This document shows, one piece after another, positions 3,280 through 47,857 of a stretch of DNA of 47,857 bases (the first letter of the stretch is position 1; every line of letters begins with the position of its first letter). The notes beneath the pieces are model-generated. The model was not told the origin of the DNA. It saw only the letters and a program-made list of their open reading frames with translations, and did no database searches. This stretch comes from Spirogloea muscicola (lineage: Eukaryota). The DNA lies in NCBI GenBank assembly GCA_009602725.1, contig WELB01000007.1, positions 1,134,336-1,182,192 on the forward strand, written 5' to 3'. A program made the position numbers and the translations under genes.

Positions 3280-4340
3280 AGGAGTTTATTCTGAACTTGT
3301 GGTCACGGGCTGCCCTAGGCACTTACAGTGTAGTAGTGCAGGATCTCCGTCCGTAGTGGCCTCATTCACGCTGAGAGCAAAGGCAGTGAGCAGCAAACGG
3401 CAGATTGCAGTCTGAACTGTACACTGTGAAGTTGGTATTTGCATCTGCATATCTGGCCAAGTCGTCGTACGGCAAGCACGACCTCTTGGAGCATCATGAC
3501 TCCTCTACTGCATTGGAGGACTATACTTGGAGGTTAGTACTGTGCATGGTCAGTTGCTCAGGAGATTGCTCATGGGTACGCCTCGGTGATGCCAAAGGCA
3601 GCTGGAGCTTCTCGGCGTTGCTTGGTCGGTGCAGCACATGCCTCTATCATGTGGTATGTAGGGCGTGCAACATGGGGGACTGAGGATTGTGGACAGTGGG
3701 AGGACGGTGCAACGGGAGGAGCGACGCAAGATGTGATGGACAAGATAGCCCGCAAGAGAGCAGCGGCTGGCAAGCTGATCATAAATGAAGTTAAATGAGC
3801 GCGCAGTGACATTGGACTAGCCAGATTCACGGTGGATGTGCCTGCGGGCAAGCTTCAGGTGGACTACGGTGCTGCAAGCTCAAAGTCCTGCCACCTCCAT
3901 GAAGCTTAAAGTGAGGCAACTTCACAACTTTCGCTTGGACTCTCCCTGGGATCATAGATTGCAGGGAAAGCATGGTTGGCAGTAGTGATGGCAGTAGCTT
4001 GTGACATACAACGGACGACTGCTCAGGGCACTTGGCAATGATCTTATTAGCGTCCTGATATCTGTTGGCGTAAGCATCAGTCAATCATCAATCAGTTGCT
4101 CGACAGTACAAGGTGTTCGGTATCATCAGCAGATTTTCGTCCTGCTCGTAAGCCACAAGCTGCCCACCGACTGCCGCGGAACCAGTCGGGCCAGATGCTG
4201 GGGGAGGGAGGACTGTCAGTCGCCATGGAAAGAGCGCAGCAGCAGCAGATAGCGGGTCGAGGCCAAGGAGATCGAGCTCGAGGCGGGCCTGTGTCTAACG
4301 CCCATGTGTCTGCCGCATGCGCCTCGTGTGGCTTTCGCCA

Positions 4341-5184
4341 GAAGAAAGTGCTCTCCTAGCGGAGGTAGAGGCTGGGAAAGGCCAGCCCAAAAAGGATAGA
4401 CAAGGTCCGAAGAGCCGAGAGGCGCCTAAAGCCACACAACTAGACACGAGACAACTGCAGAAGGAAGCCTAGTAACCACGGGTGAGCAGCAGCAAGTCGG
4501 AGAAACTCGCAGCTGGGGAAGAGGCACCCCGCCGAGAGCCAGATGGAGCAGCCATGGCGCGGTCTGCTCGCAAGTGAGAGAGAGAAGGGCTCGCCCATTG
4601 AGGATAGGGGCTGGGGAAAGCCAGCGCAGGAAAGAATGAGCGAAGTGCGAGAAGGGGCCAGGGGAAGCACTAAGGAAGACGAGCACGAGAAGAAGCTGAG
4701 CAGCTACGAAGCACTTAGTAACCCCTGCTAAGCAGAAAGTGGCACTCCCAATGGAGGCAAGGGCTGTGAAAAGCCAGCCCGGAAAAGAATTGACAAAGGT
4801 TCGAAGGGGCCAAATGATGGAGGGGCCTGAACAGCGCTAAGCAGCTACGAAGGGGCCTGAAGAAGCTATGTCAGAACGGGGGAGGATGGACCAGTCAGTA
4901 GTTACGAGTGAGGAGCCTCAAATCCGACAGACCAGCTGCCCCAGCGCTAAGCAGCCTCAGGTGGACTGCAGAAGTAGAGCGCGCCCATAGAAAAGAAAAA
5001 GCTGCAGAGAGCTGGAGAGAAGAGCGCGCCCTTAGAAAAGAGGGGCTGGCAAAGCCAGCCCAAAAAAGAATGGACAATGTCCAAAGCCAAAGCAAGAGGA
5101 GCCGGAGAAAGGACTACACTACAACATACTGCAGAACACAGAGACGATGCAGAGGAAAGCTCAGTACCCACGAGTGAGCTGGAG
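4341..5184 (-). mobile_element. Cluster 1 of nested 5'-truncated RLE (CRE-like) non-LTR retrotransposon 3' ends
   Basis: Four ORF-terminal segments ending (L)L(T/S)R(G/N)Y* (stops near 4469, 4715, 4895, 5161), each followed by a 3' UTR with the GGGCTGGC..CCAGCCC hairpin. TSDs gctaagcag (4727-4735/4946-4954) and gagctggag (5009-5017/5176-5184). Near-identical copies elsewhere in the window (4736-4940 vs 13235-13440; 5020-5180 vs reverse complement of 46580-46740). Confidence 0.85.

Positions 5185-5591: not shown

Positions 5592-5680
<89 letters not shown>
5592..5680 (+). repeat. 89-nt poly(A) run ending at a single-N contig join
   Basis: Seen directly. It follows a GGC-rich tract and abuts the N at 5681, so it is probably an assembly or read artefact. 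Confidence 0.8.
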
Positions 5681-5681
5681 N

Positions 5682-9306: not shown

Positions 9307-9459
9307 CGTCGGCCGCCCCGCCNGGCTTTTGGCAGCGATGGACAAGGCAGCAGCAGCAAAGGCGATGGCGCCAGAAGACAGCAGATCATATACTTCTATG
9401 AGGGGCTTCCCTCCTCTTATTGATGACAATTCTCATTGCGGCTTGGCTGAGATACTGAC

Positions 9460-10040
9460 CGTGTAGATTGTCCTCAAGATTGCCGTGTTCAAAGAGATCG
9501 TAGACCAGGAGGCGCAGCTCGCCCTCGATGCAGTAGCCAATGAGAGAGGCGACGTGCCGATGGCGTACTGCACCGAGCATCTGGACCTCCGTCTGGAACT
9601 CGCGGTCGCCATCAGGGCCGTCACGCGTCAGCACCTTGACGGCAACCTGCCGCCCAGCCGCTGCCGGCGGCGGCGGCAACGTGCCCTTGTACACCGTGCT
9701 GCAGCCGCCTCGGCCGATGACTGCCGCGTCAGGGTAGCCGCCTGTGGCCGCCGCTAGCTGCGCGTGCGTAAACGCCACCCAGTGCGATTCGAGGCCGGCG
9801 ATGAAGCGCAGGCTCGCCGCTGCATCGTCCCCCGCCATCGGCGACCCGCAGCTTGACGTCGGGCTGGTGGCGTCGCCGCCAACGGCCCACGCGTCGGCAG
9901 CTGCTGTGCTGCCGGCAGGACGACTACCGCTGCTACCGCCACCGTCGTCGCTGTTGCGCGGCGAGAAGAAGGCGTCCTCCGTGTCCCACCCACCAGAGAC
10001 GCCGGGCTCGTTACTGCCACCTTCACTCGATGGACAGCGT
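9460..10040 (-). pseudogene. RLK/Pelle (receptor-like cytoplasmic) kinase fragment: N-lobe exon only
   Basis: FTHAQLAAATGGY...IGRGGCSTVYKGTL...VAVKVL...GDREFQTEVQMLGAVRHRHVASLIGYCIEGELRLLVYDLFEHGNLEDNLH, then a GT donor at 9459. No downstream kinase exons before the single N at 9323. It may be an intact gene broken by the assembly. Confidence 0.75.
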
Positions 10041-10089
10041 GGCAGCGGCGGCGGCGGCGGCAGCGGCGGCAATGGCGGCGGCGGCGGCG

Positions 10090-12661
10090 CCTCCGCTGGC
10101 AGCGGGCCGACGACGTACGCGAGCAATGCGAGCCTGGACGCCAAGGTCACCATCCTCACGCGCGTGTTCGAGATCGCGACGCAGCAGACCGAGGTCAGCG
10201 CCACTGTGCCCCCCCTGCAGCGCAGCCGCCGAGTGCAGCGGCGCCCTTGCACTGCAGACGATCTTATGATGGCCACGCGCTTACGTGGGACCAGGTGGAG
10301 CACCCACTCTGCTTGGAGTGCACACGAGAGCTCTGCAAGGAGCTCGAGGCTGAGGTCGACGAGGTGGAGCGCGACATTGTCGCGTACTCCGCGCTGCTGG
10401 TGGAGCTCGAGGCTGAGCCATCGCACGGCATGACCCACGCGGACTACTCGCTAGAGAAGCAGAAGGTGAGCCGCCGCCAATGTGCGGCTGCTCGGCAAAG
10501 AAAGCTAGCATCCCAGTTGCCTCGAAGCCGGTGCCCATCTTATGGGGGTCATGTGCTAACATGGCGGTAAGAGGAGCTCGAGCGAGCAGGCCTCCTGTGC
10601 CTCCTCAATACAATGTGTCAAAAAGCCCATCTTTGCTGATCTTTCCGCTTCGGCTAGTCGGGGCTTCCATGTGCTGACGTTGCAACCGTGCATTGGCTGC
10701 GCATTACCACGAAGACAGCACTATGACAGTGCCGTGCAAGCGGCCAGCATTGTGTCTTGTAAGGAACACAAAGAGGTACCGGGGAAGGTGCTGATGAAGC
10801 ACGTTGGTGCCAGTGTGCTGTAACGGATGCAAGGCCAGTCACATACCAGCACTCTTCTGCTGGGCGGGGCAGGCGGAGGAGGAGGAGCAGAAGCTGCTGC
10901 GGCAGCTCCGGGGCGTGGAGGAGCAGCAGGCGGAGGTCCAGGCGCAGCTGGCAGGCCTCAGCGTCAAGTCCCGTGAACTTGACGAGCTTGAGGAGCGGTG
11001 AGATATGAAGCTCCATACTGTGCTCCACAGAAACCTCGCCCTGCTACTCCTGGCAGTCAACTAGTGAGCTATGTGCCTTGCGAGGCGGTTGCTCTGGTCA
11101 CAGCTAAATTTGTTCGTGGTGCACACCGGTCACTGCAGATATTGGCATGAGTTCAACGACTTCAAGCTGCAACTGGCGTCACACCAGGTTTGCTGCAGAC
11201 ATTGCACCCCTGTACGCTACATCCTGACCCCTAGATTTGAAAGTGAGAGTACTGGTAGCCAGTTAGCATCTCACACCCCTGACCCAAACACTTACTGTCT
11301 TCTCTTGCTGCTGGTCACATGTCACCAGTCTTGCAAGGAGGCCAGCGCCAGCTGTGTTGCAGATTTGCTGCTCATGCTCCCCACAGCGCAGCAAGGGTTG
11401 AGAGGGGACGCTCACCTGCTGAGCTTGCAGTCAATGATGTCAATGACGTGCGCAGGAGGAGCGCGATGCAGTGTTTGCCAAAATTGAGGTGGCGTCTGCT
11501 CAGCTGGAGGCCCTGAAGCACGTCAACGTCTTGAATGACGTATTTTATATTTGGTACAAGGACGACTTTGGCACAATCAGCAACCTCCGTCTTGGGAAGC
11601 TGCCTCACATTCCGGTTGATGCCTTGCACCTCCATCAAATGGAATTGGGGCATACTCCTTCTCAGCTCTCTGGCTCGCAAGTGTCTGAAGCAATCTGTCC
11701 GAGCAAGAAGTGCATGCCAGAGTTGCCAGGGCTTCTTACGAGAGCCGTATGCGCGAGTAGGTGGAGTGGGACGAGATCAATGCAGCATGGGGCCAGGCCT
11801 GCCTCCTCCTTTTCACCATGGCTCACCTGTGTCGCGTGACCTTCTCGTAAGTGCCCCCAGATGAAGCAACAGCAAAGAGGAGCTCCTATTGCAATGGGGA
11901 TACTGTCATCCTGATCCGTGGGCAGGATCTGAGTGCGACTTGCGTGATTGGTAATGCATAGGTACCGGATCCTACCTATGGGAAGCTATCCAAGAATAGC
12001 TGACAGCAAAGATACCTACAACCTGTGCGTCTCCTCCCACTCTTCGAACTCAAGTGAAGACCTGAGAGCTGCTTGAATTCTCCTTTAAAAACAGGCAGAC
12101 AACCCCACTGTGGGCACTGGGGAATAGATGCTAGATAAGTCAATCTGCCGAGGCTCCTCACTTTTCTGAGCTGTAGTTGCTGCAGTTGTTGCAAACTCCA
12201 CCTTTGATGACACCGTGCTGCAGTTTTGGGCCTGTCAACATCTTCTGGAGCACCCGGTATGACAAGGCCATGGTGTTCTACCTCGCCTGCCTCAAGGAGT
12301 TTGCTGACTTTGCGCACGCCCGTGACCGCGCTGCTGAGCTGCCTCCTGGCCAATCCTGCTTCCAGCTTCCATACAAGTGAGGCTGTTGCTTCAGGTTCCT
12401 CATGCAGCGCTGGTGTCTCTGTGGGGTTGGCAAGCTTCAGGCAGTCCACTGCACATCTGATCCCCAGAGGCTGGTCACTGATGCAGAATTGAAAATGACG
12501 AGGTCAACGGGTTCACAATTAAGCAGAGCTTCAACCGTGAAGAGCGGTGGACCAAGGCACTCAAGTTCATGCTGTGCGACCTCAAGGCCTGCCTAGAGTG
12601 GCTCTGCACTGCTGGACGTGGCACGCCCTCGCACCCAACCTCAACAGAACCCAAGGCGTAG
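10090..12661 (+). CDS. ATG6: Autophagy protein ATG6/Beclin-1, multi-exon, N-terminus not found
   Basis: [147 protein letters not shown]. Stop at 12659-12661. Start coordinate is approximate. Confidence 0.92.
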
Positions 12662-13100
12662 TGCCTCAGGAGCAAGCGGCAGCCCCCTTCATTGGTGGCC
12701 ATGTACATACAGCAAGCTGTTTGTTGCTTCGTCCGATTGAGCCTCTTGGGGTCTCAAAGAGGTCTTTTTCTTGTCACTTGGCAGCGGTACTGCTTAGCTG
12801 GCAAGTGCTGACTCTGTCTACGCTGGCCTGGTCGCGGAGGGGTTACGGTTGTTCTTCGCAGCAGCAGGCACTAGAGAATGCTAGGCATGTGCCTTGAGCA
12901 GGGCCTTGAATAGGTCGTCAAGAGGGAGCCTGCAGGTGGGATGCGCGCCCCTAAGAGGGCGGCGTGTTCCAGCACAAGCTGCCTTGGAGCCGCCAGCCTT
13001 GCTGGAGCCAATTGTGCCGGCGGCATAGCTGAGCATGGTGGCGGCGACTAGGCGTCAAACCGTGGACTAGATGCTGGAGCGATGCTGCACGCCCCGTGCA

Positions 13101-13861
13101 GGTTGTCTTCCTGGGCTAGTTTTATACAGCCATCGCCTCTTCATGGACAGGATTGCTGTGTAGGGGCAGAGGGCCAGTGGCGACAGTGGCATGGGCGGGA
13201 GAGGGCTCGCTTGAAAGTAAGCCTCTTCCAGTAGAAGTGGCACTCCCAATGGGGGCAAGGGCTGTGAAAAGCCAGCCCGAAAATGAATTGACAAAGTTTC
13301 GAAGGGGCCAAATGATGGAGGGGCCTAAAAAGCGCTAAGCAGCTACGAAGGGGGCCTGAAGATGCTATGTCAGAACGGGGGAGGCTGGACTATTCAGTAG
13401 TGACGAGTGAGGAGCCTCAAATCCGACAAACTAGCTGCCGGAAAACTATCCCCCTGACGAAAGCCGGAGGCCGCAGCGAGAGCACGGCCAGCACGCAGAC
13501 GCAAGGCGTGGGCCATGGACCGCTGAAGGGAGACGGACAATCGCGTACGATATACCTAAGCCCACGAGCCAGCGGAGGGCGATGGCTGTGTTTCCCTAGC
13601 TCAGAAAAAGAGGGAACAGCTTTCGAGGGGCCAGGCAATCACTAACGAAGCTCAGGAGGAATTTTCATGTACTGCAACAATCGAAGTCCAAAGTGGCCAC
13701 GTACTGAGAGGGAATGAAGTGTACTAAGAGATCGAGGGCCTGTGTGGCCAAGTACAAAGGCAAGCACATTGAAATGAAACGGCTGCTGAGCGGCTGTGAA
13801 AGCCAGCCAGATGCAAACAGGTTTTTATGACGGAGCCACAGGCTAGGCAGACAGGGCGCTC
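13101..13861 (-). mobile_element. Cluster 2, part a: stacked 3'-end remnants of RLE retrotransposon families
   Basis: 13235-13650 is the same family as 4736-4945 and encodes ...RLSVSLQRSMAHALRLRAGRALAAASGFRQGDSFPAASLSDLRLLTRHY* (stop 13394). 13780-13860 is the UTR shared with 23580-23670. There is a degenerate plus-strand hairpin end at ~13101-13160. Confidence 0.8.
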
Positions 13862-15283
13862 TTAGTAACCCCGTGTCAGCAGTAGGAAGTCAGATGAGCT
13901 GAGGGGAGAAAGAGCAACCCCGCTGCGCAAGCCAGAGGCTGCTGCAAGGGCGCGACTTGCGCGGCGATGCAAAGCAAACGCTTGGGACCGCTGTAGGGAC
14001 ATGGATAAACGCATGCGATTGCAGGACACAAGACCAAAAGGCACCGAGCCACCGGGAAGGGGTGTACCCTGTTCCCGGCGCTGCTGGTCAGCTTGAGATG
14101 CCAGCAGCGAAAGTAACGAGTACCACCGACCCCCGTAACACCCATGGATGTCCATGGCCAGGGGGTAAAAGGCATCACCCGCCGGGTGGTCCTTGTACTT
14201 GTGCATTTTCTACTGTTCGGCCACCTTCACGGCATAGCCGGTCTCAGAAGTCACAGGGCCCTTCGTCCAGAAGCTGTCGGTTAGGACGACGTCCATGAGA
14301 AGCCGCTTGCCACCTCCCAGGGGTTCATTCTTTTTTGGGCCGGCTTTGCCAGCCCCTCTTCTCTATGGGCGCGCACTTCTCCCAGGGGGACGCCAATTAG
14401 ATCGACACGCCGCGTCCAAGGGACCCCGTTGCGGAGCTGGACGGGCATCACCCCGGTGCTCTCCGCCGCCACTTGATATCCCGCCTCCTTGACGATGCCA
14501 TACTTGGCGTCACGTAGGAAGTGTGGGAGACCGTGCGCTCACTTCCTTTGGCACACCTGAGCATGTGGTCACCCATGAGCACTGCATCATGCTCAATAAG
14601 CCCACCTTCACATTGGGTCACCCCTGCCAAGCACAGGGATGGTAAGCCAAGACGGCGGCGCATACCATCGCAAAACAAAGCATTTTCCATCCGCAAGCCC
14701 GCAGGCAAAGGCAAAGCGCGGAGCCACTCAGACGCTCCCAGAGACGAAACAGATAGGAGTCGAGCCTGGCCTCGAGCATCCCCTTGGAGGAGACTCCGAA
14801 GATGCTCCAGGTTGCTCGTCTGCAGCACAGGAAAACCGCGATTGAGCCTTAACATCAGAAACGTCAGCCCAGGCAGCAAAACTAACAGGCTCATTCACCA
14901 GAGGCGGGTATGCGGCAAAGAGGTCCTGTTGGCATGCTTTGAGAGTCACTTGGAAAGGCAGACTCCCCTGAACCACGTTACTGATGTGAGGCGCCAATAC
15001 ACGACGTTGCTCAAGGAGGAATCGTCCAGATATGGACGAGGCCACCTGAGCCCAGCAGCCAAGGTACGCTGGTCTGCATAAGCGGACCAAGGGGCGACAA
15101 CCAAGCCCACCGTGACGTATGGGCGAGCAAGCGCGGCCAGATTAACTGGTGGCTGGGAGAGGCCAGGGATGGGCAGCGTACATTGCACCAGTGCTGCTGG
15201 AGACTGCTCTAGGAGTGGGTGAGCAATCAGATCAGCAAGGCATTGCTGAAGCTTGACATCAATGGATGCATAGACCTCATCCA
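13862..15283 (-). mobile_element. Decayed CRE-like RLE non-LTR retrotransposon: C-terminal ORF region (post-RT segment, Zn-knuckle, restriction-like endonuclease), cut by the gap
   Basis: After removing two mini-insertions the frame reads QCTLPIRHGGLGCRPLVRLCRPAYLGCWAQVA ... QARLLSVSSLGASEWLRALP...MRRRLGLP...CEGG...DHMLRCAKGSERTVSH ... RRVDLIGVPLGGGKRLLMDVV...AE Q*KMHKY...FYPLAMDIHG...RLSMSLQRSQA...LLLTRGY*. Frameshifts and one in-frame stop are present. Clade assignment is from motif recall. Confidence 0.85.
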
Positions 15284-15638
15284 NNNNNNNNNNNNNNNNN
15301 NNNNNNNNNNNNNNNNNNNNNNNNNNNNNNNNNNNNNNNNNNNNNNNNNNNNNNNNNNNNNNNNNNNNNNNNNNNNNNNNNNNNNNNNNNNNNNNNNNNN
15401 NNNNNNNNNNNNNNNNNNNNNNNNNNNNNNNNNNNNNNNNNNNNNNNNNNNNNNNNNNNNNNNNNNNNNNNNNNNNNNNNNNNNNNNNNNNNNNNNNNNN
15501 NNNNNNNNNNNNNNNNNNNNNNNNNNNNNNNNNNNNNNNNNNNNNNNNNNNNNNNNNNNNNNNNNNNNNNNNNNNNNNNNNNNNNNNNNNNNNNNNNNNN
15601 NNNNNNNNNNNNNGCCGCTGCCGCCTCCAGCCGGCGCC

Positions 15639-18600
15639 ATGCAGTACCGCGGGGAGCCCCCCGAGTACCACTTCCGTCCCGCCGGCCGCGGCGGCGGCGC
15701 CGCCGGGCCCTCGCCGTCTGTGAGCGCGCGCCCCAACCCCCCGTCCTGCTCTTCGCCGCACACCACGGCCGCGCCTCCGGCCGCAGCCGCCGCGAGGACC
15801 GCGGGGGCCTGTACTCCCCTTGGGCCACCGTGGAGGCATACTCCCATGTCTGCGCAGGCAGGGCTGGCCTTTCCCCTCCTTTCTCAGTGCTGACTCGTGG
15901 TTACCGAGCGGGTCAGCTTGGCAGCAGGTGATGTACACCTGTCGATGTCCTTGCCTCTGTACTTGGCCACCCAGGCCCTCCACCGCTCAAGACAACCTCC
16001 ATATCTCAGTGCTGGAGGCAGGCCTGGACGAGTGCGTGCCTCTGCTGCGGGCACTGAGCTTGTCGTGCCGCGGGCCCGTGGGCGTGCAGGAGCTCCCGGC
16101 CTACCGGGAGGGCTTCCCAGGCGGCCAGCGCGGGCCGGGGCCTCGGCCAGGCGACGGGGGCCGCGGCAGGTTCTCCGACCCCGCCGCCCGGCGAGACCGC
16201 GACGGCGCCTACAAGCACGACGGCGGCGGCGCGTCGCCGGCCAAGGGCCTTTACGTGAGCGGCGCAGCTACTTGCCCCTCTGCTCTCGCCCTGGACGCAC
16301 GGCGCACCGCGCCGATTTGCCTACCATCAGACGCTTTCCGCGCATTGTCTCGCCAGCCTCTGTCACTGCTGTGCGCGTGACAAGTGCGGGTGTCCGGCAC
16401 ACTCAATTATGAGCACTGTGGTTGTGGCCTTGCAGGACGTCAGAGGGCCCTACCCAAGTGACAGGAACGGCGGCAGAGGCCAAGCTGACCGTGGGCTTCC
16501 AAGGTCTGACGACTACGACGGCAGGGGAGGCGAACGCAGAGACCGAGGGCCTCCACCTCCTGGCCGCAAGGTGAGTGCCGCAGTGTCCCGTTGTCGTCGG
16601 GCACTGTTGCTGGTCTACCTTTGTGCGCCAATTATGTGTGGGAAGCCGTTAAAAGAGCAGCAAGCTCGTCATATGCAGGCAGCAAGTGATCCGAACGACA
16701 TAGGTGAGCCAACGGAGGTCCTCTGGGTGGGGTTTCCACTGTACCTCCGCGTGGACGAAGCGGCCCTGAGGCAGGAGTTTGCGGTATTTGGCGAGCTGGA
16801 GCGCATACGCGCCTTTCCCGGTCGCACGTATGCATTCGTGCAGTTCAAGCGCCTGCAGGACGCCATCACGGCCCGGGAGGCGCTGGAGGGCAAGCTCTTC
16901 AACGACGCGCGTGTTCATATTAAATACTCAAAGACCGAGGAGGAGAAAATTGCGGAGCGCAAGGACGATGTGGGCCCGGGCTCTGGCAAGAAGCTCTTGC
17001 GGGGCCTCACAGATGCCCATGGCGGGGATCTCTACCACGATGCTGTACCACATGCATGGGGGCCCTCTGGGGCCGGCCTCGCTCACAGCGAGGGTGATAT
17101 CCCCAGCTGGCAAGGAGGCCCTGCGCGGGACGAAGCGCATCTGAGAGAGTTTGCTTATCGGGATCCCAAGCGCGCACGGATGGCGGGGCAAAGCTTTGGT
17201 GACGGGCAAACAGTCCTACCACTGGAGTCACTCGCCGCAGGTGTCGCATACGAGCACGGCCGGTTGCCGGCTGAGTCAACTATTGATGTGGGCCTCAAGC
17301 CCGGCCCTCCAGGCTTTAATCCTGGCCCCGTTCCCGGCGCCCCGGGTCAGCCGCTTCTTCAGGCGCAGTACTCGGACCGGAATGCCGCGTGGTTTGGTTC
17401 CGTGGCCAAAGGTGGCGTGCACGTGTGCAAAGCGCGGTCGTCGTCCCTGGGCAAGCCCCTTGATGCGGCATTGTGAGTTGCTCCGAGCAGCCTACTTGTA
17501 CACGTCTTGTCAGTGGGGAAGTGGCTGCTTACCTGTTGCAGGTGTGTTGCAGGTGCAAGCAACAAGGCGTAGGCTACTTGCGTCTCACTTTGCGCAAGCT
17601 GAGTCACTGTGCAGCTTGGCTGGTTGCTGGTACTATTTCTCAATAATCTTGTCAAGCACTTCATTAGCTGTCCAATCGGCTCTTTCCTGGGTGCAGGCCG
17701 GATGTCATTGACTGCCGAGCACGGACAGACCTCGACATCCTAGCGCAGCATGTGTATCAGGCCGGTGACTTTGGTGTGGTTGCGCTCCTGCCTGAGGAGG
17801 ATCCGGACGTCCCACCATACGAGGAGTTCGTGCAGTATCTTGGAGAGAAGCGGCGCGCCGGCGTAGGAGAGCTCGCCGATGGCTCCACGCTCTTCCTGGT
17901 GCCTCCGTCGGACTTTGCACAAGTTGTCCTCAAGGTCCCCCGCAATGACTGCCTCTTTGGGCTCGCTCTCAAGTACCCCCCAAAGCAGCCGCTGGTAGAC
18001 AGTAGCCATACCGCGGGGCCGCCGGCCCCGCCGCTGCTGCCGCAGTCGATGCAGCACCAGCAGGCGCTGTTGCAGCAACAGCAGCAGGCAGCAACAACTA
18101 GCGCGCAGGCGTTTCAGCCGGCGTCCCATGCGCCACCGTCAGGCCACTATACGCAGCAGGTGCAAGGTTCGCAGCAGCAGTACGCCCCACCCCGTGCACA
18201 GGACGTTGCTGTGTTGCCTGGGCAAGCAAGGCCGGGGCCTGCGCAGGCGCCGCTGGCCAGCCAGGGGGGCCCTCCGACGGGTGCGGCGGCGACTTCGTCC
18301 CAGCTCTCAGCGCTTGCCGGAATTCAGGGTCTCACGCCGGAGCTTCTTGCCACCATCAATGGGCTGCTTGCCAGCAGTGGTCAGCCTGCTCTCCTGTCGG
18401 CCGTCCCCCCAGGCATTGCAGCCCCGCCGGGCCCGTCACCGCCGCCGCCGTCGACTATGTCGGGCGGTCCTCGGCCTCCTCCACCAGCAATCAGAGGCCC
18501 TCCGCCACCTGTAGGACCTTCTTCCAGCACCGCTGCGGCTGTGGTGGGCCCTCTTGGGGGTCCTTTGCCGGGCGTCTCGCTGCCATCCTATCGGCCGGGC

Positions 18601-19068
18601 ATGTTTGCGTCCTCTGGCACTGCGCTGCCGCCGCCGCCCAACTGGCAGATGCAGCAGCCACTGCAGCACCTGGAGGCGGCGACAGCGTTGCAGGCTCACC
18701 AGAGCGGCAGCTCAGGGGCAGCACTGCAGCCGGCGGGAGGGGCAGGGCCGTCACTGTATGCGGCCCAGTTTGCAGGCCCGCCCCGGTTGCAGCAGCAGCA
18801 GCAGCAGCAGCAGCAGGCGCAGCAGCATCAGCAGGGGCCTCTTCCGCCTGCCACCGCAGCTCCCGCCAGCGCGCTGCAAGGCTTCCAGGCAGGCTCGGCG
18901 CCAGCACCTCTGCACTCGGCGGCCTTGTACCCGCCGCCGCCACTGCCGCTGGCGCCGCAGCAGCAGCCGCTACCAAGGCCAGGCATAGGGATGGCCGCAG
19001 CACCAGCGCCGGTGCAGCTGCCAGCCGACCAGCTCGCCCAGCTGACGGCGTTGCTTACGCAGAGGTCT

Positions 19069-19148
<80 letters not shown>

Positions 19149-19830
19149 GCCGCAGCAGCAGCAGCAGCAGCAGCAACTGCAGCAGCAGCAGCAGCCGCAG
19201 CCGCCGGTTGTGCCCCAGCCGAACCCACTGCAGCAGCTGCAGCAGCAGCAGCAACTGCAGCAGCAGCAGCTGTATCAGGGGGCTCCTGCTACGGTCCCCC
19301 CGCAGCAGCCAGCACAGGCAATGATGATGCAGCAACCCCAGTACAGGGGACCACCCCAGCAGTACCAGCAATACCAGCAGTACCAGCAGCATGCGATGCA
19401 GCAGCATCCGCTACAGCAGCATACGGTGCAGCATACGCAGCCGCCGCCACAGCAGCAGCTAGCCTCGGGCACGAGCAGTGCCTGGGATCAGCAACAGCCG
19501 CACCACCAGATGCCGCGACCGACACAGCCGCAGCAGCAGCAGCAGCAGCCACATCCACAGCAGCAGCAGCATAACGCCGCCACTTTGCAGGCGGCGCAGC
19601 ATCAGCAGCAGAATCAGCAGCAGCAACAGCAGCAGCAGCAGCAGCAGCAGCACCAGCAACAGCAGCTCGTACAAGCAATGCCGCCGTCGCAGCAGATGTT
19701 GCCTGAATCGTCAGGGGCAGAAGGGGATGATAAGTCAGAAGCAGAAAAGCAGAAGCGTTTCCAAGCCACATTGCAACTTGCTGCCGCACTCCTCCAGCAG
19801 ATGCAGCAGCAAAAACCGGCTGGGACATGA
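15639..19830 (+). CDS. FPA: FPA-like Spen-family RNA-binding protein (RRM + SPOC + Q/P-rich tail), multi-exon
   Basis: RRM PTEVLWVGFP...FAVFGELERIRAFPGRTYAFVQF...LEGKLFNDARVHIKYS. SPOC domain WFGSVAKGGVHVCKAR...|PDVIDCRARTDL...YEEFVQYLGEKRRAGVGELADGSTLFLVPPSDFAQVVLKV. FPA-type C-terminal helix KRFQATLQLAAALLQQMQQQ. The true start may lie in the upstream gap. Confidence 0.85.
19069..19146 (+). repeat. (CAG)26 coding trinucleotide repeat within a larger Q-rich region (~18790-19810)
   Basis: Uninterrupted CAG run seen directly, in frame in ORF 17752..19830. Confidence 0.9.
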
Positions 19831-21619
19831 AGACAATCAGTGCACAAGGCAATCAGCTTGGGAACCTTGAAGGTATACATGGAGACAACCTACTTAATGA
19901 CATGGCACAATAGTTGTCGGTAATGAAGCAAGTAATGTGAGAGTGACTAAATGTGAAACACTGCCTGGTCAGCGAGGCAGTGACAGGGTTTACTGGAGGT
20001 CTCGCACTCCCAGCTCAGCTGCCATATGCCTCTTGGAACGCTCAGCGTCGCGTGCATCAAGTGCACCCCACCATAAAAGTCACGATCCTGAGAGCTGTAG
20101 GTGCCCAAAATGCGGAGTAGCAGAAGCTTGCACATTACTTTAGCATCATGCAATGAGCTGCCTAAAGAAGGAAGGGTGTTGCTGCGATGATCCTCACATC
20201 AGATCGTGGTCAGTGCTGTATCAGGCTGTTACCTTAGAGGGGTGCCTGACAATGTAAGAGCCCCTAAGTGAGAGAAGTTGGTCATCGTGTCGCTTGTGTA
20301 CAGATTGAAGTAATGACTAAACCTGCTCAAAGCCAGAGCTGCATGCAGATTGCAACACCTGGACATGAGAACACTGCGCTACACGTGATGGATGCGTCTA
20401 TACTCTAGGAGGCAACAGACCGTGCAACCTGTTCGCTCTTAGGAAATGCCAAGAAGCCTGGGCTCTGTACCTGACAAAAGCTGTCCCTGCTTCCTTGAAC
20501 CTTGACAGAAACCATGCAGAAGCTTCACCAGCTAAGCTTTGAGGTGATGGAGAGGAGGCCGCTAGGGAAGTGTTTAAGTATCATCACAAGCTCTCAAGCC
20601 CTTGGAAGGCTGCCGCCGCATCACACTGATTAAGTGCTGCAGTAAGAGACTCGAGTATGATGCAGTCTTCGAAATTGTGGGGTGTTGAGGGGCGTTTTGC
20701 CTGAAGCCATTTCAGCTGCATTGCAACAAAAGCTGTCACTAACATTTGGCAGCCTTTGCAAGAGGTGTCTGGTCAACATCAATCGTCAGTTGCAACATCA
20801 ATTGACGGTGCAAAGAGCAAGGCACAAGCTGCAACTGCCTGCAGGATGTGCGAGGTTGTTATCGCAGGCTGACTGCTTTACCGGGTGCCAATTAAGTCCC
20901 GGTCTGCTTGTCTGCCTCACATCCAGTGAAGCACTCACAATGTTGCTGCTGCAAGTCTGGGACTTGCACTGTTGCACTACAGCAAAACCTGGAGAGTACA
21001 TGTCGTGCTGATCAATTAGGAAACTGCCTTGTGGCTCATGAGTGTGGACAACAATTGTGGACAAAAAATGACTCGATCATAGCACTGCAGCTCCAGTTGC
21101 TGCATCAAGATGTCTAAGAGTGGATCATCATAAGCAGGCTAAATTCATTTTACGCCATCACATCCACTGTGGCTGACACGTGACACCACAGCCAAGACAA
21201 TGAGGTGACCACGCGTAAATCGACGCTCAGAAACTGCAAATTACCAAGTTGCTAATGTGATTGCAAACGGTGGTCCCATAACCACATGAACGACATTGTT
21301 GCCATACACAGAAGAGAGAAGAGTATGACAATTATTATGTAAGATGTTTTAGTATATCACTAATATATGTTGGGCTTCCTTTCATCCGCCCTCTGCAGTA
21401 TGCCCTCAATAAAATTGGGTTGCTCCACTGAGATGGCCGGAAAGAGCTGGCCGAAAATTAGCAAAGCTGTGGTCGCAATCCAATCTTCTGCAACCCACTT
21501 GCATAACAGAAGTGGGCATTGGTTTAAAGACAGGCGGCACTCTTTGTGCGACGGGGCCTGGCAAGCGTAGGTTGGTGAAGCGGGAGCAGTTGGTCTTGTC
21601 GGTGTCATAGTGGTGGACT

Positions 21620-23870
21620 TTAGAGAGATGGGCTCGCTTATAGAGGATAGGGGCTGGGAAAGCCAGCCCAGTTAAGAATGAACAAAAACCAAAAGTCCTT
21701 AGGATGGCATAAGCCAACCTTTCATATGACGAGCGGCGGACTTAGCCGCAAGCCTTAAGCAACGCCCCGGCTCAGACTCAAATGGGTGATGACTTCTTGA
21801 TGGTGAGGAGTATCATCGCCATCAGGCTCAGGTACACTGTAGTGAGCAACCCGGCGAACGAACTCCCTGGCGTGTAGTCATATGCTATGAATGCGCCATG
21901 AGCCTGTTGTCTGTTGGACGAGAGCATCAATCTGGAAGGTGTAGCAGTGGAGACGAGGAAGGAAGTGGTCTTTCTAAAGAGGTGGCAAGTTGGTGTAAGA
22001 AAATGTGTCAAGTGAGCGAGAAATTGAGGGAGATGGAGGAGATCTTCAAGTAAAGAGGGAAGGCGCGCAGTGTGCATAGGATGAAAGGAGGCCAACCCGA
22101 GTTTAGGTAACAAGACGACAGCAAAGCTGGAGGGGGACCTCAGTACCCACGAGTGAGCACAGACAAAGCCGACAGGCTAACTTGGGGAGCCGGAGCACCG
22201 CCACAGAAGCCAGTGGCCTGGCTAAGACACGCCCAGCACGCTGGTAGATTGCCAATGCTTGAAAGCTGCAGACAGCGAAAGCCACCTTTTGTGACATGCA
22301 ACTATTGCGTGCGGAATCCTAGACTGCACAAAGCTGCCCCCCCAGCTGCGGCGACGCGAATCAACCAGCTGGGCCAGATGCTGGAGGAGAGAGGACAAGG
22401 TTAACGGCGCCATGTGCATTCTTCCCATAAGGCAAGTACAAGGTTCTGAAAGGGCCCAAGTAAACAGCTCTTTCAACGCAAGGCAATGGCTGTGAGAGGC
22501 CAGCCCACAGAAAGTGAGCTCCTCCAAAGGGGGCGGGGCTGTGAAAAGCCAGCCCAGGAAGAACTGACAAGGTCCAATGGGCCGGGTGGCGCCAAAACCG
22601 CCCAGCTATGCAAGAGACTACAGCGGATGGGAGCTTGGTAACGAGTCAGCGTCGTAAATCGGAGTAACTTGCAGCTGGAAAGAGAGAATGAGGCACCTGG
22701 ATGAGACCCAGAATTGGCAGCCACAGCGGGGTTGCCCACAAGTGTACCGTGTGAGCTTGGGAACGTTGGAGAAAGTTTGGCTCTCTTGGAAGGAGACAGG
22801 TAGCCGCATGCGGAACACCTGGGCAGGCGACCTGGCGGCGTTGAAGCCGGGCAGCTCACCTTGCGGTCCCTGCCGACGATCGATGGCCGGCCGTGTAAGT
22901 CGCTGCAGGAGGTGCACTGAGCTCTTCCACAAAGAATTGACAAGGTCGAAGGGGCAGAAAAGCGCTGAAACACCGAGTAAACAAGTACCATGTAGGAGAA
23001 GCACTTCCAAAAGCCAGTCCAGAAAAAATGGGCAAGGTCCCCAGTGCCGAAAGGGGCTGAAAGCACACTGCTGTGCGAGAGACTACAGCGAACGGGAGCT
23101 TCGTGACACACACAGCCGTCCCCCTCTACTGGAAGAGTCTCTCTTCATAGTAAGCCCAGAGCCCAAAGGAATGAACAAGGTCTGAGACCTGAGAGGGCCG
23201 AGAGGCGCAAACAAACACGAATCTATTCTCCGTGATTTTTGTGCGAATGACGCTCAACCTCTGGTCAGCAGAGTGCAGTGATCGGAGTAAGGAGAAAATT
23301 TCTGCTACTGCGGAGTTACTAGGCTCCCATTCGCTGTAGTCTCTTGCATAGCTGTGTGGTTTTGCCGCCTCTTGGCCTTCTCTTGGCCCAGGGGGAAGAA
23401 GAGAGAAGCGCGGCCAGATTGACTGGTGGCTGGGAGAGGCCAGCCCAAAGAAATGGACAAGGTCTGAAGGAGCCGGATGGCGCAAAAAGCAAGGTACTAA
23501 GAGGGAAAAATGCTTCCAACAGAAGCTTCTCTTTTTCCCAGAGGGCGACTGCTGTGCGAGGCCAGCCCAGGAAGGAATGCGGCTGCTGATACTGAAAGAG
23601 CGGCTGTGAAAACCAGCCAGATGCATACAGGTGGTCTTGACGGAGCCACAGGCTAGGCAGACAGGGCGCCCTAAGATGTGCTTGCCTTTGTACTTGGCCA
23701 TTTGGCCTTCGTTTGTTTCAAATACACGATATTTCTCATAGTACCCGCGGGTCAGCACCAGGAAGGCAGCGCTTGCTCGAAGTCAGATGAGCTGAGGGGA
23801 GAAGGCGCGGGCGGTGCGCATGAAATTGAAAGGGAGGCCAGTTCTAGCCTTACAAATGTCCTGTTCACTG
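21620..23870 (-). mobile_element. Cluster 3 of nested RLE retrotransposon 3'-end fragments (several families, mostly minus strand)
   Basis: Hairpin ends at ~21650, 22490, 22540, 23430, 23550 and 23600. ORF-terminal segments at 22140-22410 (same family as 47268-47520), 22637-22900 and 23740-23800. TSDs ccaca (22505-22509/22927-22931) and gaag (23762-23765/23779-23782). Confidence 0.82.
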
Positions 23871-24456
23871 GGTAATGAGCTGGCTAAGGGGGACACTGAT
23901 ATATCCCCGAAGGGGAGGAAACAGAATAACAAAGGGGCCAGATAAAGCGCTGAGCCATACAGGGACTCCACGTGGCCACGAGGCACTCTGTACCAGAGGG
24001 CGACGCGGACTACGACACTCTCGCAGCTCGGCCTCGCCGGCGGGCCGGGCAGCGCGGCGGGCCTCGCGGCGGCGATCGCGGGCATGGCGCCGCCGCCNNN
24101 NNNNNNNNNNNNNNNNNNNNNNNNNNNNNNNNNNNNNNNNNNNNNNNNNNNNNNNNNNNNNNNNNNNNNNNNNNNNNNNNNNNNNNNNNNNNNNNNNNNN
24201 NNNNNNNNNNNNNNNNNNNNNNNNNNNNNNNNNNNNNNNNNNNNNNNNNNNNNNNNNNNNNNNNNNNNNNNNNNNNNNNNNNNNNNNNNNNNNNNNNNNN
24301 NNNNNNNNNNNNNNNNNNNNNNNNNNNNNNNNNNNNNNNNNNNNNNNNNNNNNNNNNNNNNNNNNNNNNNNNNNNNNNNNNNNNNNNNNNNNNNNNNNNN
24401 NNNNNNNNNNNNNNNNNNNNNNNNNNNNNNNNNNNNNNNNNNNNNNNNNNNNNNNN

Positions 24457-31600: not shown

Positions 31601-34600
31601 GTACCAGAGCAACAGCTTCAAAGAATTGCCTTCGCAGCAAGAAGATGAAGGTCTTGCGCCCCACATAAATGTTCTGCAGCCTTTGTAGTTGTGCAGCACT
31701 TGCACACAAGCAAGGGTTCGAGAAGCTGGAGGTACCAAAGCTCACAAAGACCTGCAATCGTAGGTTAAATAACGGCATATCTATACTTCATTTTCATTTT
31801 CCTCTGCATAGAGGACACATTGCTCAAAGTGACCTACCTTGGACTTGTATGCAAACTCAGAGGCGTAGTCATGCTCCTGGAAAATCTCTAGGAATCTTGG
31901 CTTGGTTTCCACTTTCTTGTCAACTGAAGATACCACCCTCACCACAAGCGCTTCAGCTGCAGGAACCTGCTCCATCAAGGCAATGCAGTCAGCGCCAAAG
32001 CCCATAAGCAATCATCCAAGACATACTTGTAGCAGCTGATAGCATCAAAATGCTGTAGCTGGCGATGCGTGAGGATGCGTCCCTTGCGCCTAACATCACA
32101 CACTTAAGCTATGTAATCACCTCCTCTGGTGGCTGCCCTGACCGCGCTGCTCTTTCCTTCCTCTCCTGCTCAAGCTTCACTGTCAGTCTTCTCTCTAAGT
32201 GGTCGCTAAGAACTGTCTTCGGAAGGTCCTTGGCTCCAAGAACAGCAGATGGGGGGAGGGGTTGTCGATTGCCAGCTTCCATCTCCCTGCAACAACATTC
32301 TGGGCAAGTGTATGCAGCCTCGCCGCCCTCATTGCGACGGGCATTGAAGAGAGCGCATATCTGGTGTTGCCACTTCTTGCACTCATCGCATTCCACCCAC
32401 TGCACCAGGAGAAAGCAACCATTCATGTCACTGGCAACAACATGAGCACAACTTAAGGTTTGTTCAAATTGAATTGTCTATATTATCAACAGTATGTTCC
32501 TCTAATTAAGGGAGCAAATACAGGTCCAGGGCCAAAGTGACTGATCAGATGTGCAAGATACAGTACATTAGCAGCACTTACCCCTTCCTCTGTTTCTTCG
32601 TCATTTTTCCGCTTCTCCAACCTAGCCTTTTGGTAGGTTGATCCTTCCATCTCCACAACATCGCCCTTGATATCACCGTAGCAAGGCCCGCAAAAGTAGT
32701 GCCTCGATTCTCCTATGCCAACAGTGTAGTACACTGCGTTCCTCTTGATTCGTGATCCACACGCAGTGCAGTATATTGGAGGTGGTTCAAAGGAGAGTCT
32801 CTCCATGGCACAGAGTGGGCATGCATTCTCATTTGGCTCCATGGCCTGATTCTTCTCTGCCCTAGCCTTGCTCTGCATATCACAACCAATCCAAACCTGG
32901 AGTCAAAAATTGCTGGTACCTATCAACGTACTGTCAATGCACAGCTTCATTCCCCCCCTCTTCAGGGGTCCTCACATCAAGGTCAGCAACCCTGTCAGAA
33001 GTACAACGGACCATGAAGTTGGGGTACAGGGCGCACTGCTCACCTGGCCCACCCACTGTTTCAGGCCTCGAATGTGCTCCCTTATCATCTGAGGAGTGAA
33101 GAGCTCCATTAGGGAGGCTGCTCCACTCTTCCTCGCTTTTGGCGCCATGGCTGAGGCATTTGCCAAGGCTGACGTTGAAGAGGCCTGGGCTGCAGCCCGC
33201 TGGCTGGCTGAGGCAGCGGTGACTGCCACAGGAGCACCTGCTACCTGCTGCGCCAAGGGCCTCCCAGCCTTGGCCTCTTGCTTTGGCACTTTGCCATTCA
33301 GAGCTACAGACTCGACCTTGACAGGAAGACGATGTGTAGTGCCCAAGCTGCTTGCTTCCAGCTTCACCTCTGGCTTCACCTGACCTGCCTCTGCTCTGAG
33401 ATCGACCTTGGAAAGAGGCTCGACTTTCACAGCAGGCACGTCGGCCTTGACTCGAGCAGAGGGCAAGTGCTCTCCGTGGGGCTTGGCAGTGGCAAACCCT
33501 ACGTTCACCTTAGCAATCCTCTCTTGCTCCACAACATTAGCACCAGCAAGTGAAGCTGTCATAGATGTTATCTTTGGCTTCTTGCTTGGGGGTGGCGATG
33601 CAGCTGAGCCTGGAGATCCCACGCCATCCACATCTTCCTGCTGGCGCATTGCAGAAGCAGCAACTTGGCCAGGGCCTGGCAACAGTCCAGCAGGTTGAGC
33701 GGGCCCCTGCCCAGCCAAACCGCAGCCGGTAGCGGTAGTCCGCGAGGCCTGTTGCGCCTGCGCAGCATTGTTGGCTGCCGACGCCCTCTGCTGATGTACA
33801 GCCCTCCTCACCGGCTCGCACACGGGGCATCTCGTGTCCCTGCAACCCTTGTGATGCTCAAGCAGCGTCCGCGTGGCAATACAGCGTTGGTACGTACACT
33901 GAGGGTCCCGGCAGGCGGAGACGTGAGCCCACAGCTGGCGTGCCATGCTGCAGTGCAGCGTGGCCGTGCACTGGCCTTCAGGAGCCGTGCATTTGCTCCC
34001 ATGTCGCAGAAAGTGGAGCCATCTTTGCTGCTTCTGGTACTGAGCTGCCCGTTGGGGGTCCACAGCTACCGCTGGAGCCGTGGTGCTTGGCGGCCCCGCT
34101 GCTCCAGCATCTGCACGGGCTTGCGTCACAGCCAAATGCTGACCTGGCTTCTGAATCCGTGCTTGCACCTGAGCTTGAGATTGAGCCGGGCCCTGAGCCT
34201 GCGGCTGCGACTGCCCTGGCGTCAGTTGAGAAGCCTGCGCGAGCGCCTGCACGTGACCCTGGCCCTGCCCTTCAGCCTGCTCCAGCGCTCCAGCTTGCCG
34301 TGAGTGCAGATGTTGATCTACACTCGCAGGTACTGTCTGCTGGCTGGCCGACAGGTTTGCCCGCCCATCTTTGCCCTTCACCAGAGCCTGCTGCCGCAGC
34401 AGATTCATTGCGGTGCTGCCCACCTGCTGCTGAAGCTTCTGCTGTGGCTGCTGCACGGACGTAGTAGTGGAAGTATCTGCACCATACGTGGTTCCGTGAC
34501 GCAACTGATCTGGCGGCTGAGTATCGTGCTGCTGCGGCTGCTGCTGCTGCTGCATTGGTGCCAAGCCAGGCACTGGGATCATTTTGCTGAGGGGTTGATG

Positions 34601-44325: not shown

Positions 44326-44569
44326 GATTTGTGCCTTCCGCATTTCATTATTTCGACATACCGGTCGTTGACAACGTCAGCATGCAGCTTTATCTGCCTA
44401 AACCCAGTAGATCTTGTCCGTGTCCTTAGCCGCGTGACGAGAGCTTGTCTTTGAGGTGTATAATTGTCTAACTGAATCGCAAGTCATAGTGACCCTCCAT
44501 TATGCTTCTTCAGCGCCCTGCTGGCCGAGCTTTTTCACCACTCACTGCTGTGCAATTCTGTGAGCCAAC

Positions 44570-45790: not shown

Positions 45791-45799
45791 ACGAAGCAC

Positions 45800-46890
45800 T
45801 CAGTAACGCCTGCTAAGCAGCCTCAGGTCAGAGAGACTGGGTCGGAAGCGGGTCCCCTGGCCAGAGCTAGAGGCAGCACAGAGAGAGCCCTTCAACCGCC
45901 GCCTCGTTCACGACATCGATATTTCCTAACGATCCCCCTTCGCCGCCATCCCCCTGCGCGCACGGCGGCGGCAGCAGCGGCAGCGGCGGCGGCGGAGGCG
46001 GCGACGGGCCCGCCGCCAAGCGCGTCCGCGCCCAGCTGGATGGGCATTGTTGAGGTGTTTTCCACAGCCTCCTTGAAGCCCGCCTCCCCTGCATGCCATC
46101 TCGCAGGAGATCGTGGGAACCGGTCCGCTCGCCCCCGTGCGCGCAACGGAGCATATGCGCAGCCAGCTCCGCAGGGTCGGCGTGACGGACACCACACTCG
46201 CACTGTGTGACGCCCACGAGGCAGGGAGGGAGGAGGCCAAAGAGCCGGTGGACCGCCGTCCTGAAGACCTCATCGGGCATGGTGAGCGCCGCGTAGAGTG
46301 GGAGCGCTGATAACCACGCCGCCGCCCTGGGGGAGGAGGCTGAGAGAAGCCGGGCGCGCCCGCGAAGGTCAGACGGAGGGAGAAGCTCCACGACCTGGTC
46401 AGAGGCCGCTTTTCCAACCAGCGCCGTGAAGCGTGCCTGGGGGTACGCAGGTCAGGGGTGCGGGCGAGGTGGACGAAAGCCCTCGCCGTCCACATGCGAG
46501 CAGGCCGTGCTATGGCTGCCGCCTCTGGGTCTCGGCGGAGTGCCTCTTTCCCTGCAGCGAGCTACTCAGACCTGATGTTGCTCACTCGTGGGTACTGAGC
46601 TTCCCTTCGCATCGTTTCTGTGTTCTGCAGTGTTTTGTAGTGTAGTCCTTTTCCTGCTCCTCTTTCTTTGGCTTTGGACATTGTCCATTCTTTTTTGGCT
46701 GGCTTTGCCAGCCCCTCTTCTCTATGGGCGCGCACTTCTCTGACGAAAGGGACGGCCTGCTCCGACACGTTGAAGCAAGCGCGGCCAGATTAACTGGTGG
46801 CTGGTGGTGGTGGCTCCGACACGTTGGGGTGGACCGCCAGGAGCCCGTCGCGGGCAGAGCGGAGGGCAAACCTGCAAGGGCAGCTGGGCA
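45800..46890 (-). mobile_element. Decayed CRE-like RLE retrotransposon fragment (Zn-knuckle region) carrying two nested insertions
   Basis: RARLLSASSPRAAAWLSALP...FRTAVHRLFGLLPPCLVGVTQCECG...AHMLRCAHGGERTGSHDLLRD aligns by eye with the peptide at 14500-14800. Insertions with TSDs at 46472-46749 and 46759-46826. Confidence 0.85.
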
Positions 46891-47100
46891 GAAAGCAAGG
46901 TACTAAGTGCTGAGACGGCAGCAAGGGGACTCTCAGTAAACGTCTAGTCAGTAGATACAAATGGGAATAGGTAGCAGGCGGATAGACGCTAAAGAAACGG
47001 TGTTAAAGGAACAGCTCTTCCAATTCACAAGTGAAAAGCCAGCCCGAGAAGAGTTGACAAGGCCGAAAGAGCAAGCGCGGCCAGATTAACTGGTGGCTGG

Positions 47101-47857
47101 GAGAGAGAGAGAGAAAGAAGAGTGCGCGCCCATAGGGAAAGGCGCGCGGGGCGCATGAAATGAAAAGGGAGGCCAATTCAAGCCAATACACAGTTCAAGC
47201 AGAGGCGAGTGCAAAGTAAACAAGGCTACATAATATAGAGACCTAAACTAGGGTGCCTAAGGTGACATTAGTACCCACGGGAGAGCACGAACAAATCGGA
47301 CAAGCTGACTTGGGGAGCTGGAGCGCCGCCACGAAAGCCGGAGGCCCGACTTAGAGCGCGCCCTGCACGTTGATGAAGAGCGGCTTGCGAGCGCAGCAAA
47401 CAAATCGAGAGCCGCATTCTATAGTATGCAATTAAGGCCTGTGGAATGCTGGAGTGGCCCAAGCTGCCCCCCCGACTTTTACGACGCGCATCAACCAGCC
47501 GGGCCAGATGCTGGATCAGAGAGGACCATTTCAAGCCGTAGCCGCCATAGATATCCATGGCACACGGGCAAAGATGGTCCCCTCGGGGATGGTCCTGGTA
47601 GTGCCGCTCCTTCTTGCGCTCCGCGCTGGACGTGGCCCAGCCAGACACGGTTGACGTGGGTGTGCCAGCCTTGTATGCGTCGATCAGTACCACGTCCAGG
47701 AGCAGACGAGGCCCACCGCCCCGGGGGGTGGCGACCACGTCCAGACGCCGCACGTATGGCTTGCCGCGCCTGAAGGAGATTGGCATGATGCCGGACACCT
47801 CCATCGCCGGATGATACCCCGCCTCTCGCAAAATTCCAAACATTGTATCCCTGAGTA
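47101..47857 (-). mobile_element. CRE-like RLE retrotransposon 3' part (endonuclease domain, stop, 3' UTR, (TC)n tail), continues beyond window
   Basis: ORF 47268..47843 ILREAGY...E...RRLDVVATP...LLLDVV...AERKKERHY...PCAMDIYG...RMRLSICLLRSQA...LSRGY* has the PD-(D/E)xK RLE layout. The UTR ends ...CGCGCGCCTTTC(TC)n near 47101. Confidence 0.88.

Follow-up and report, generated by a model that had tools for sequence, protein, structure and literature searches.

A 55-nt insertion in a retroelement of Spirogloea muscicola is most likely an extremely 5'-truncated copy of a CRE-like LINE family

Within a 47,857-nt stretch of the Spirogloea muscicola genome (contig WELB01000007.1, positions 1,134,336 to 1,182,192), which was analysed as a whole and is referred to below as the window, we examined a 55-nt segment bordered by a 10-bp TSD in the endonuclease region of a decayed LINE. 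We consider it very probable that this feature, hereafter the index insertion, is real and was made by an ordinary LINE mechanism, as a 5'-truncated TPRT copy. Indeed, longer copies of the same family in the window run back into the C-terminus of a LINE ORF, and the insert is therefore most likely an extreme 5'-truncated TPRT product. The coordinates of the index insertion, its host and the main related copies are collected in Table 1.

Table 1. Features of the index insertion, its host element and related copies (window positions)
Feature	Position	Strand	Basis or remarks
5' TSD copy, 10 bp	14314..14323	+	present once at the empty site in contigs of X5 and X6
Insert, 55 nt, antisense relative to the host: end of the 3' UTR of LINE subfamily A	14324..14378	+	alignment with sister copies
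3' TSD copy; first 3 nt (CTC) also equal the family end	14379..14388	+	sequence comparison
Hairpin	14337..14355	+	8-bp stem and 3-nt loop in sister copies; here C14341 faces A14351 (mismatch)
Host: decayed RLE-type LINE, subfamily D	13776..15283	-	tblastn; post-RT region, CCHC finger, endonuclease, C-terminus, own hairpin-bearing 3' UTR
First catalytic Asp codon, host endonuclease	14401..14403	-	aligns with R2Bm KPD
Second catalytic Asp codon, host endonuclease	14291..14293	-	aligns with R2Bm KPD..D motif
Further mini-insertion in this host (sense): 3' end of subfamily B, 44 nt	15125..15168	-	6-bp TSD 15119-15124/15169-15174; starts in the hairpin 5' arm
Related reference element	47111..47855	-	open endonuclease-domain ORF 47268-47855 (leaves the window); the 3' UTR has a CT run at its end
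Subfamily A copy, 262 nt, 5'-truncated (ORF C-terminus and 3' UTR)	46480..46741	+	lies antisense in another LINE ORF; 8-bp TSD with G as first base; TCTCT end
Subfamily A copy, 158 nt	5018..5175	-	9-bp TSD starting with CTC
Subfamily B mini-insertion, 40 nt	46773..46812	-	14-bp TSD; without the hairpin 5' arm

The two 10-mers are identical and cannot be extended on either side, and 55 nt lie between them. An earlier note on this DNA had described a 55-nt insert with a perfect 10-bp TSD, and both the repeats and the letters of the insert are as given there. The chance that a 10-bp repeat borders a given segment is approximately 1e-6 with fixed ends and 1.4e-4 when ±5 nt of slack is allowed at both ends. 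Removing the insert together with one repeat makes the minus-strand reading of the host continuous and, as had been claimed, collinear with the open ORF of the reference element (hereafter the 47k ORF). When this endonuclease ORF (47271-47855) was used as a tblastn query, the frame shifted from -2 to -1 exactly at the insertion site (65 nt mod 3 = 2). The insertion point falls between the two invariant catalytic aspartates, which bears out its placement inside the endonuclease core of a related element. Compared with other copies, the insert shows 3 differences over 59 columns with the copy ending at 46740 and 5 over 59 with the copy at 5016-5075, and it corresponds to the last 55-58 nt of the longer copies at 46480-46741, 5018-5175 and 45365-45620.

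Read contigs were also compared with window positions 13700-15280, including runs X5 and X6, which come from organisms other than those of X1 and X2. The empty site, with 14301-14313 joined directly to 14379, was found in two contigs of X5 and two of X6, and it was absent for X1 and X2 among the 15 joints listed of 120. Read depth peaked over the insert, a value that sums over contigs and was not used as a copy number. The region is dense in repeats, with an assembly gap 0.9 kb away, and no piece bridging the filled junctions of the index insert was present among the read-contig pieces listed. These observations would suit a chimeric assembly of repeats, or a capture of LINE cDNA or DNA at a break without the endonuclease. 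However, the duplication is a clean 10 bp with no loss of target, the insert ends at the family 3' end, and four other frame-verified insertions share the same anatomy, which makes capture or chimerism highly unlikely. A TPRT copy thus remains our preferred explanation of the index insertion. Its arrival need not have inactivated the host, since this element carries further stops and frameshifts; indels were seen at 14521 and 14809 in the read-contig comparison. The host stop codon lies at about 13862-13864, and its other end runs into the assembly gap at 15284.

The proteins nearest to the 47k ORF were eight EukProt gene models labelled SM (61-77% identical), a style of label that probably denotes a zygnematophycean alga. 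A full-length relative, P0010 (1067 aa), was 32% identical over 98% of the searched P0003 region; its cluster includes a Klebsormidium subtile transcript, and Closterium proteins are also found among the full-length relatives. These relatives have a single ORF with an N-terminal zinc finger, RT, CCHC finger and PD-(D/E)XK-like endonuclease (RLE), and RVT_1 was detected in all 12 long relatives scanned (P0010 and 11 more). With a 30-sequence family profile, the best PDB matches were R2 proteins (E 1e-45), and the C-terminal profile aligned with the CCHC finger and KPD..D motif of R2Bm (E 1.8e-6). P0004 alone gave no PDB match, and matches in the ESM Atlas were confined to unnamed clusters. In the window, the host and the 47k ORF carry the CCHC/endonuclease part, and the longer copies reach the C-terminus of an ORF with homology to the 47k ORF (tblastn, 4472-4576). 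Neither a full-length copy nor an RT core is visible in the window, where the host is cut by the assembly gap, so the link of the family to an RT comes from relatives at about 32% identity. No Pfam LINE domain was found in 30 window frames, in the seven nearest gene models or in P0001-P0005. Through its relatives, the family is thus predicted from sequence to have the architecture of the R2 group (RLE non-LTR elements). Related loci were absent from the viral contigs and prokaryote genomes searched, and two were found in metagenome contigs, of which only one (L001, 89% identical to P0010) has a 3' end.

In the window, a profile built from 11 ends gave 27 matches at E < 0.05, which include the 11 training copies and fall into several subfamilies. 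We hand-picked 19 ends and searched for TSDs up to 1500 nt upstream, a reach which, together with the nesting that breaks long copies, favours short inserts in the sample. TSDs of 6-14 bp were accepted at 8 of the 19 ends, at eight unrelated targets, and no acceptable TSD was found at the other 11 ends examined. The TSD-bounded inserts measure 29, 40, 42, 44, 55, 158, 210 and 262 nt; hence, five of eight are 29-55 nt long, and three of these five begin inside the hairpin. Skipping the insert restores the host reading frame in five of the eight, including the index insertion. Two accepted TSDs are weak, namely a 6-bp repeat within the CT run at 47113-47118 and the repeat at a 29-nt piece (4973-5001) that may be a tandem duplication. 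As the window copies share a common 3' end and differ at their 5' ends (55, 158, 262 and >250 nt), a TPRT origin is indicated. Read backwards from the 3' end, the longer subfamily A copies have a 3' UTR of about 140 nt and then the C-terminus of the same ORF type. For the 44-nt subfamily B insert in the same host, the empty-site joint 15118-15169 was found in X1, X2 and X6 and was strong in X1 and X2. At position 15126, 71 contigs of X1 and 86 of X2 leave the window sequence; read on the element strand, their consensus is rich in pyrimidines, and their agreement of 0.37 points to diverse flanks.

The many tiny copies (five of eight TSD-bounded inserts at or below 55 nt) would also be expected if the insert derived from a short non-autonomous RNA, a SINE-like partner sharing the LINE 3' end and copied whole or nearly so. 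Stem-loop 3' ends are typical of LINE/SINE pairs, according to an excerpt of PMC3747384. However, the 5' ends vary from copy to copy, the longer copies extend into the ORF C-terminus, the best-supported loose ends upstream of the insert are ordinary family UTR (among the 24 loose ends listed of 1162), and no Rfam family was found in the window. We therefore find a SINE-like source very improbable and retain 5' truncation of a LINE transcript copy as the more natural account of the short inserts.

Other arrangements of family copies were observed in the window. The decayed LINE ORF at 46086-46960 (-) contains the nested 262-nt subfamily A copy (antisense) and the 40-nt subfamily B insert (sense), and the reading is continuous when both are skipped; the 40-nt insert at 46773-46812 has extra CAC repeats at its 5' end. 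At 4330-5184 (-), truncated 3' ends of different subfamilies, at least five of them, are stacked head to tail; among them are a 210-nt insert that lies, with its 9-bp TSD, in the last codons of another copy and the 29-nt piece with its 7-bp repeat. At 44830-44908, a subfamily B 3' end is joined at the first base of the hairpin to a more upstream part of the same UTR in inverted orientation, an arrangement that looks like a twin-priming 5' inversion; no TSD was found there. A second candidate twin-priming inversion, at 23598-23700, was dropped, as it consists of an end of subfamily D next to a piece of subfamily F.

No poly(A), taken as four or more A within 30 nt, was present at any of the 19 ends. 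Instead of adenines, at least four pyrimidines follow the conserved core in 16 of the 19 ends (background 7%), with a mean run of 7.1 nt against 1.1 nt in the background; the counts take in bases of the TSD, and in three B-type ends they pass over one purine. The runs are irregular CT/TTC units of variable length with no fixed repeat unit. The extensions in sister copies are TCTCT (to 46741, where the TSD that follows has G as its first base), TTCTTCT and TCTCTCTCT; in read contigs of X2, TC or TCTC is added past the index end. At the index insertion itself, the end is ambiguous by 3 nt, and the true end possibly lies 1-3 nt into the 3' TSD copy. According to the earlier note, the index copy fixed the true 3' end of the family. 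This claim had to be abandoned because CT/TTC runs in sister copies and contigs go past the proposed terminus, which the TCTCT end of the 262-nt copy exceeds by two bases. The accompanying view that the family has no tail was correct with regard to poly(A) and overstated with regard to these variable runs. We think it probable that a short CT/TTC run of variable length stands at the family's end in place of poly(A).

The hairpin is present in the index insert, as noted earlier, but the label "hairpin-only" was loose, the hairpin being mismatched and covering 19 of the 55 nt. With its C-A mismatch, the insert folds no better than shuffled sequences (z -0.3). For three sister copies, z was -3.1 to -4.2, and it was below -2.9 in four of the first six folds. 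Across 11 copies from several subfamilies, the 5-6-bp hairpin core is near-invariant (93.8% of cells paired), and a search for covariation found no two-sided (compensatory) stem change in these 11 copies. The 29-nt insert has no hairpin and three other inserts begin within it, so the hairpin is not needed in the inserted product. The clustering of starts at the hairpin, seen in three of the five small TSD-bounded inserts and thus in small numbers, would fit a stall at a bound stem-loop. Two other copies, at 47111-47200 (-) and 23797-23849 (-), carry the last 14 nt of subfamily A; they lack the GGCTGG hairpin and have another GC-rich stem upstream. With its GC-rich hairpin some 25 nt from the end, the insert also resembles a Helitron terminus, and a Helitron 3' end (hairpin and CTRR) or a MITE was considered. 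Helitrons, however, are not known to make TSDs and end in CTRR, whereas the index insertion has a 10-bp TSD and the end CTTCT; furthermore, no terminal inverted repeats were seen on reading, and a LINE ORF lies upstream. The TSD and the upstream LINE ORF refute this origin, which we regard as practically nil in probability.

Beyond the window, 13 of 15 positions match the hairpin core in the 3' UTR of the metagenome locus L001, 30 nt past the stop codon, a level reached in 1 of 3000 resamples (a post hoc comparison at one locus); the hairpin/end profile search gave no match at this locus. In this Klebsormidium-type full-length relative, a hairpin-like 15-mer is followed by TATTGT-like repeats (3770-3830). 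A 29-nt family-end pattern had no matches in metagenome contigs.

The earlier note had further observed that the TSD starts with CTC like the element terminus, and the first 3 nt of the 3' TSD copy indeed match the family end. From this it had proposed microhomology-assisted priming. Five of the eight TSDs start with CT or TC, for which the raw frequency is 13% (P 0.0015). Under a null that allows chance extension into the CT tail, 21% of random sites look CT/TC-starting and P(≥5 of 8) becomes 0.012; it is 0.038 without the index case and 0.11 when the weak 47k case is removed as well. The five frame-verified TSDs start with CT (two), C (one) and G (two), and both of two subfamily A copies overlap by CTC. 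The excess is thus in the direction predicted by pairing, but it is weak and missing at two frame-verified inserts, and microhomology-assisted priming is suggestive only. With the same TPRT origin, the CTC overlap could instead stem from chance or from a weak endonuclease preference for CT/TC-starting sites, with no RNA-DNA pairing. The rate among random sites, the P values that rise as cases are dropped and the two TSDs starting with G speak for this second explanation, while the direction of the excess and the CTC overlap shared by two subfamily A copies speak against it; we rate it only a little below an even chance. RNA-target pairing would at best be optional, and the observed pattern would equally be expected from a nuclease preference.

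Under the TPRT model that we favour, the RLE would nick the bottom strand where the 10-mer begins, and the RT, likely bound to the 3' hairpin, would begin on the CU-rich RNA end. Whether up to 3 nt of pairing helped priming at the index site is, in our estimate, evenly balanced. Synthesis would have ended 13 nt above the hairpin in the index copy, and a top-strand cut 10 nt away followed by fill-in would have generated the TSD, with at most 1 nt of microhomology at the 5' junction. The family inserts without a fixed target, as judged from eight different sites, and its landing in another LINE is probably explained by the density of such DNA here.

LINE-fragment clusters are dense between the genes of the host genome, at 44300-47857, 21600-24100 and 12900-16000. 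The EukProt models P0001, P0002, P0006 and P0009 resemble chimeras of LINE fragments, some of them with real genes, and are likely annotation artefacts. Exons of host genes encode a protein kinase (9386-10450, -), a protein with RRM and SPOC domains and long CAG repeats (16259-19830, +), which we take to be Spen/FPA-like, a TAZ zinc finger (32972-34828, -) and a transferrin domain (39313-39936, -). An 89-nt poly(A) run at 5592-5681, which ends at a single N within GC-rich sequence, is possibly an assembly artefact.

Taken alone, the index insertion is routine LINE biology, and its value is as a pointer to the family. RLE LINEs are mostly known as site-specific elements with R2-type or telomeric ends. 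The five TSD-bounded copies of at most 55 nt among eight, the three of these that start in the hairpin and the 13/15 core match at L001 led us to a broader reading, which is speculative and which we hold to be rather unlikely as a whole: streptophyte algae, from Klebsormidium-type relatives to this genome, would harbour an undescribed lineage of non-site-specific RLE LINEs with an L2-like hairpin and CT-repeat 3' end, whose RT would usually abort at the protein-bound hairpin, leaving TSD-flanked micro-insertions of 30-60 nt primed by 1-3 nt of pairing. If the family were promiscuous and used a 20-nt hairpin and a CT-rich end, it would provide an RNA handle of less than 60 nt for testing template choice by RLE proteins and for testing whether short RNA-DNA pairing steers insertion, with relevance for R2-type gene writing. 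Numerous insertions of 30-60 nt would escape the usual repeat annotation and could cause frameshifts in this algal genome.

Among known systems, the CRE clade (CRE1/2, SLACS, MoTeR, FoTeR, Cnl1) shares with the relatives described here a single ORF with zinc finger, RT, CCHC and PD-(D/E)XK-like endonuclease. TSDs are reported for all known CRE elements in the accessible part of PMC3636483, and they occur here as well (8 of 19 ends, 6-14 bp). In FoTeR, truncated copies outnumber full ones and the 3' end is a simple repeat (PMC12857005, in excerpt). In contrast, most described CRE members are site-specific, with spliced leader or telomere targets, and the family studied here was found at eight unrelated targets that are neither of these repeats. 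The SLACS/CRE1/2 endonuclease consensus, as given in an excerpt of PMC12857005, matched 0 of 30 relatives in its strict form and 21 of 30 when loosened, and no named CRE-clade protein was among the matches of protein and profile searches with the family and its relatives. Since the strict pattern was absent from all 30, we file the family on its predicted features as CRE-like, a label that falls short of established membership in the CRE clade.

RLE elements without a strict target are also known from the HERO clade, some families of which prefer microsatellites (PMC4640811, partial text); our family would likewise be an RLE element without a strict target. No class of non-specific RLE LINEs of this kind was found in the available part of PMC11096116. 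Likewise, our literature search, which covered main texts outside supplements and Repbase Reports, found nothing on RLE or CRE LINEs or their 3' ends in streptophyte algae; repeat tables of algal genomes may already class this family. For SART1Bm, R1Bm and MoTeR, pairing of 3-4 nt of RNA with the nicked target has been proposed to start reverse transcription (portions of PMC7265360 and PMC3636483). Those elements are site-specific, whereas any pairing in the present family would involve 0-3 nt, be optional and occur at unrelated sites.

A parallel for the 3' end comes from the "stringent" tails of the L2-clade elements UnaL2 and ZfL2, in which reverse transcription starts, with slippage, on a short simple repeat behind a conserved 3' stem-loop (PMC1636434, in part). 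The family described here may similarly have a conserved 3' stem-loop, followed by a short repeat-like run. It differs in that its stem is short and without covariation, the role of the stem is putative, and the run is made of CT/TTC at irregular length. L2 elements use an APE endonuclease. The APE groups are listed in the accessible sections of PMC3636483. By analogy with these systems, the family may work like a 5'-truncated LINE of the R2 group with an L2-like 3' design, that is, a stem-loop and a simple repeat.
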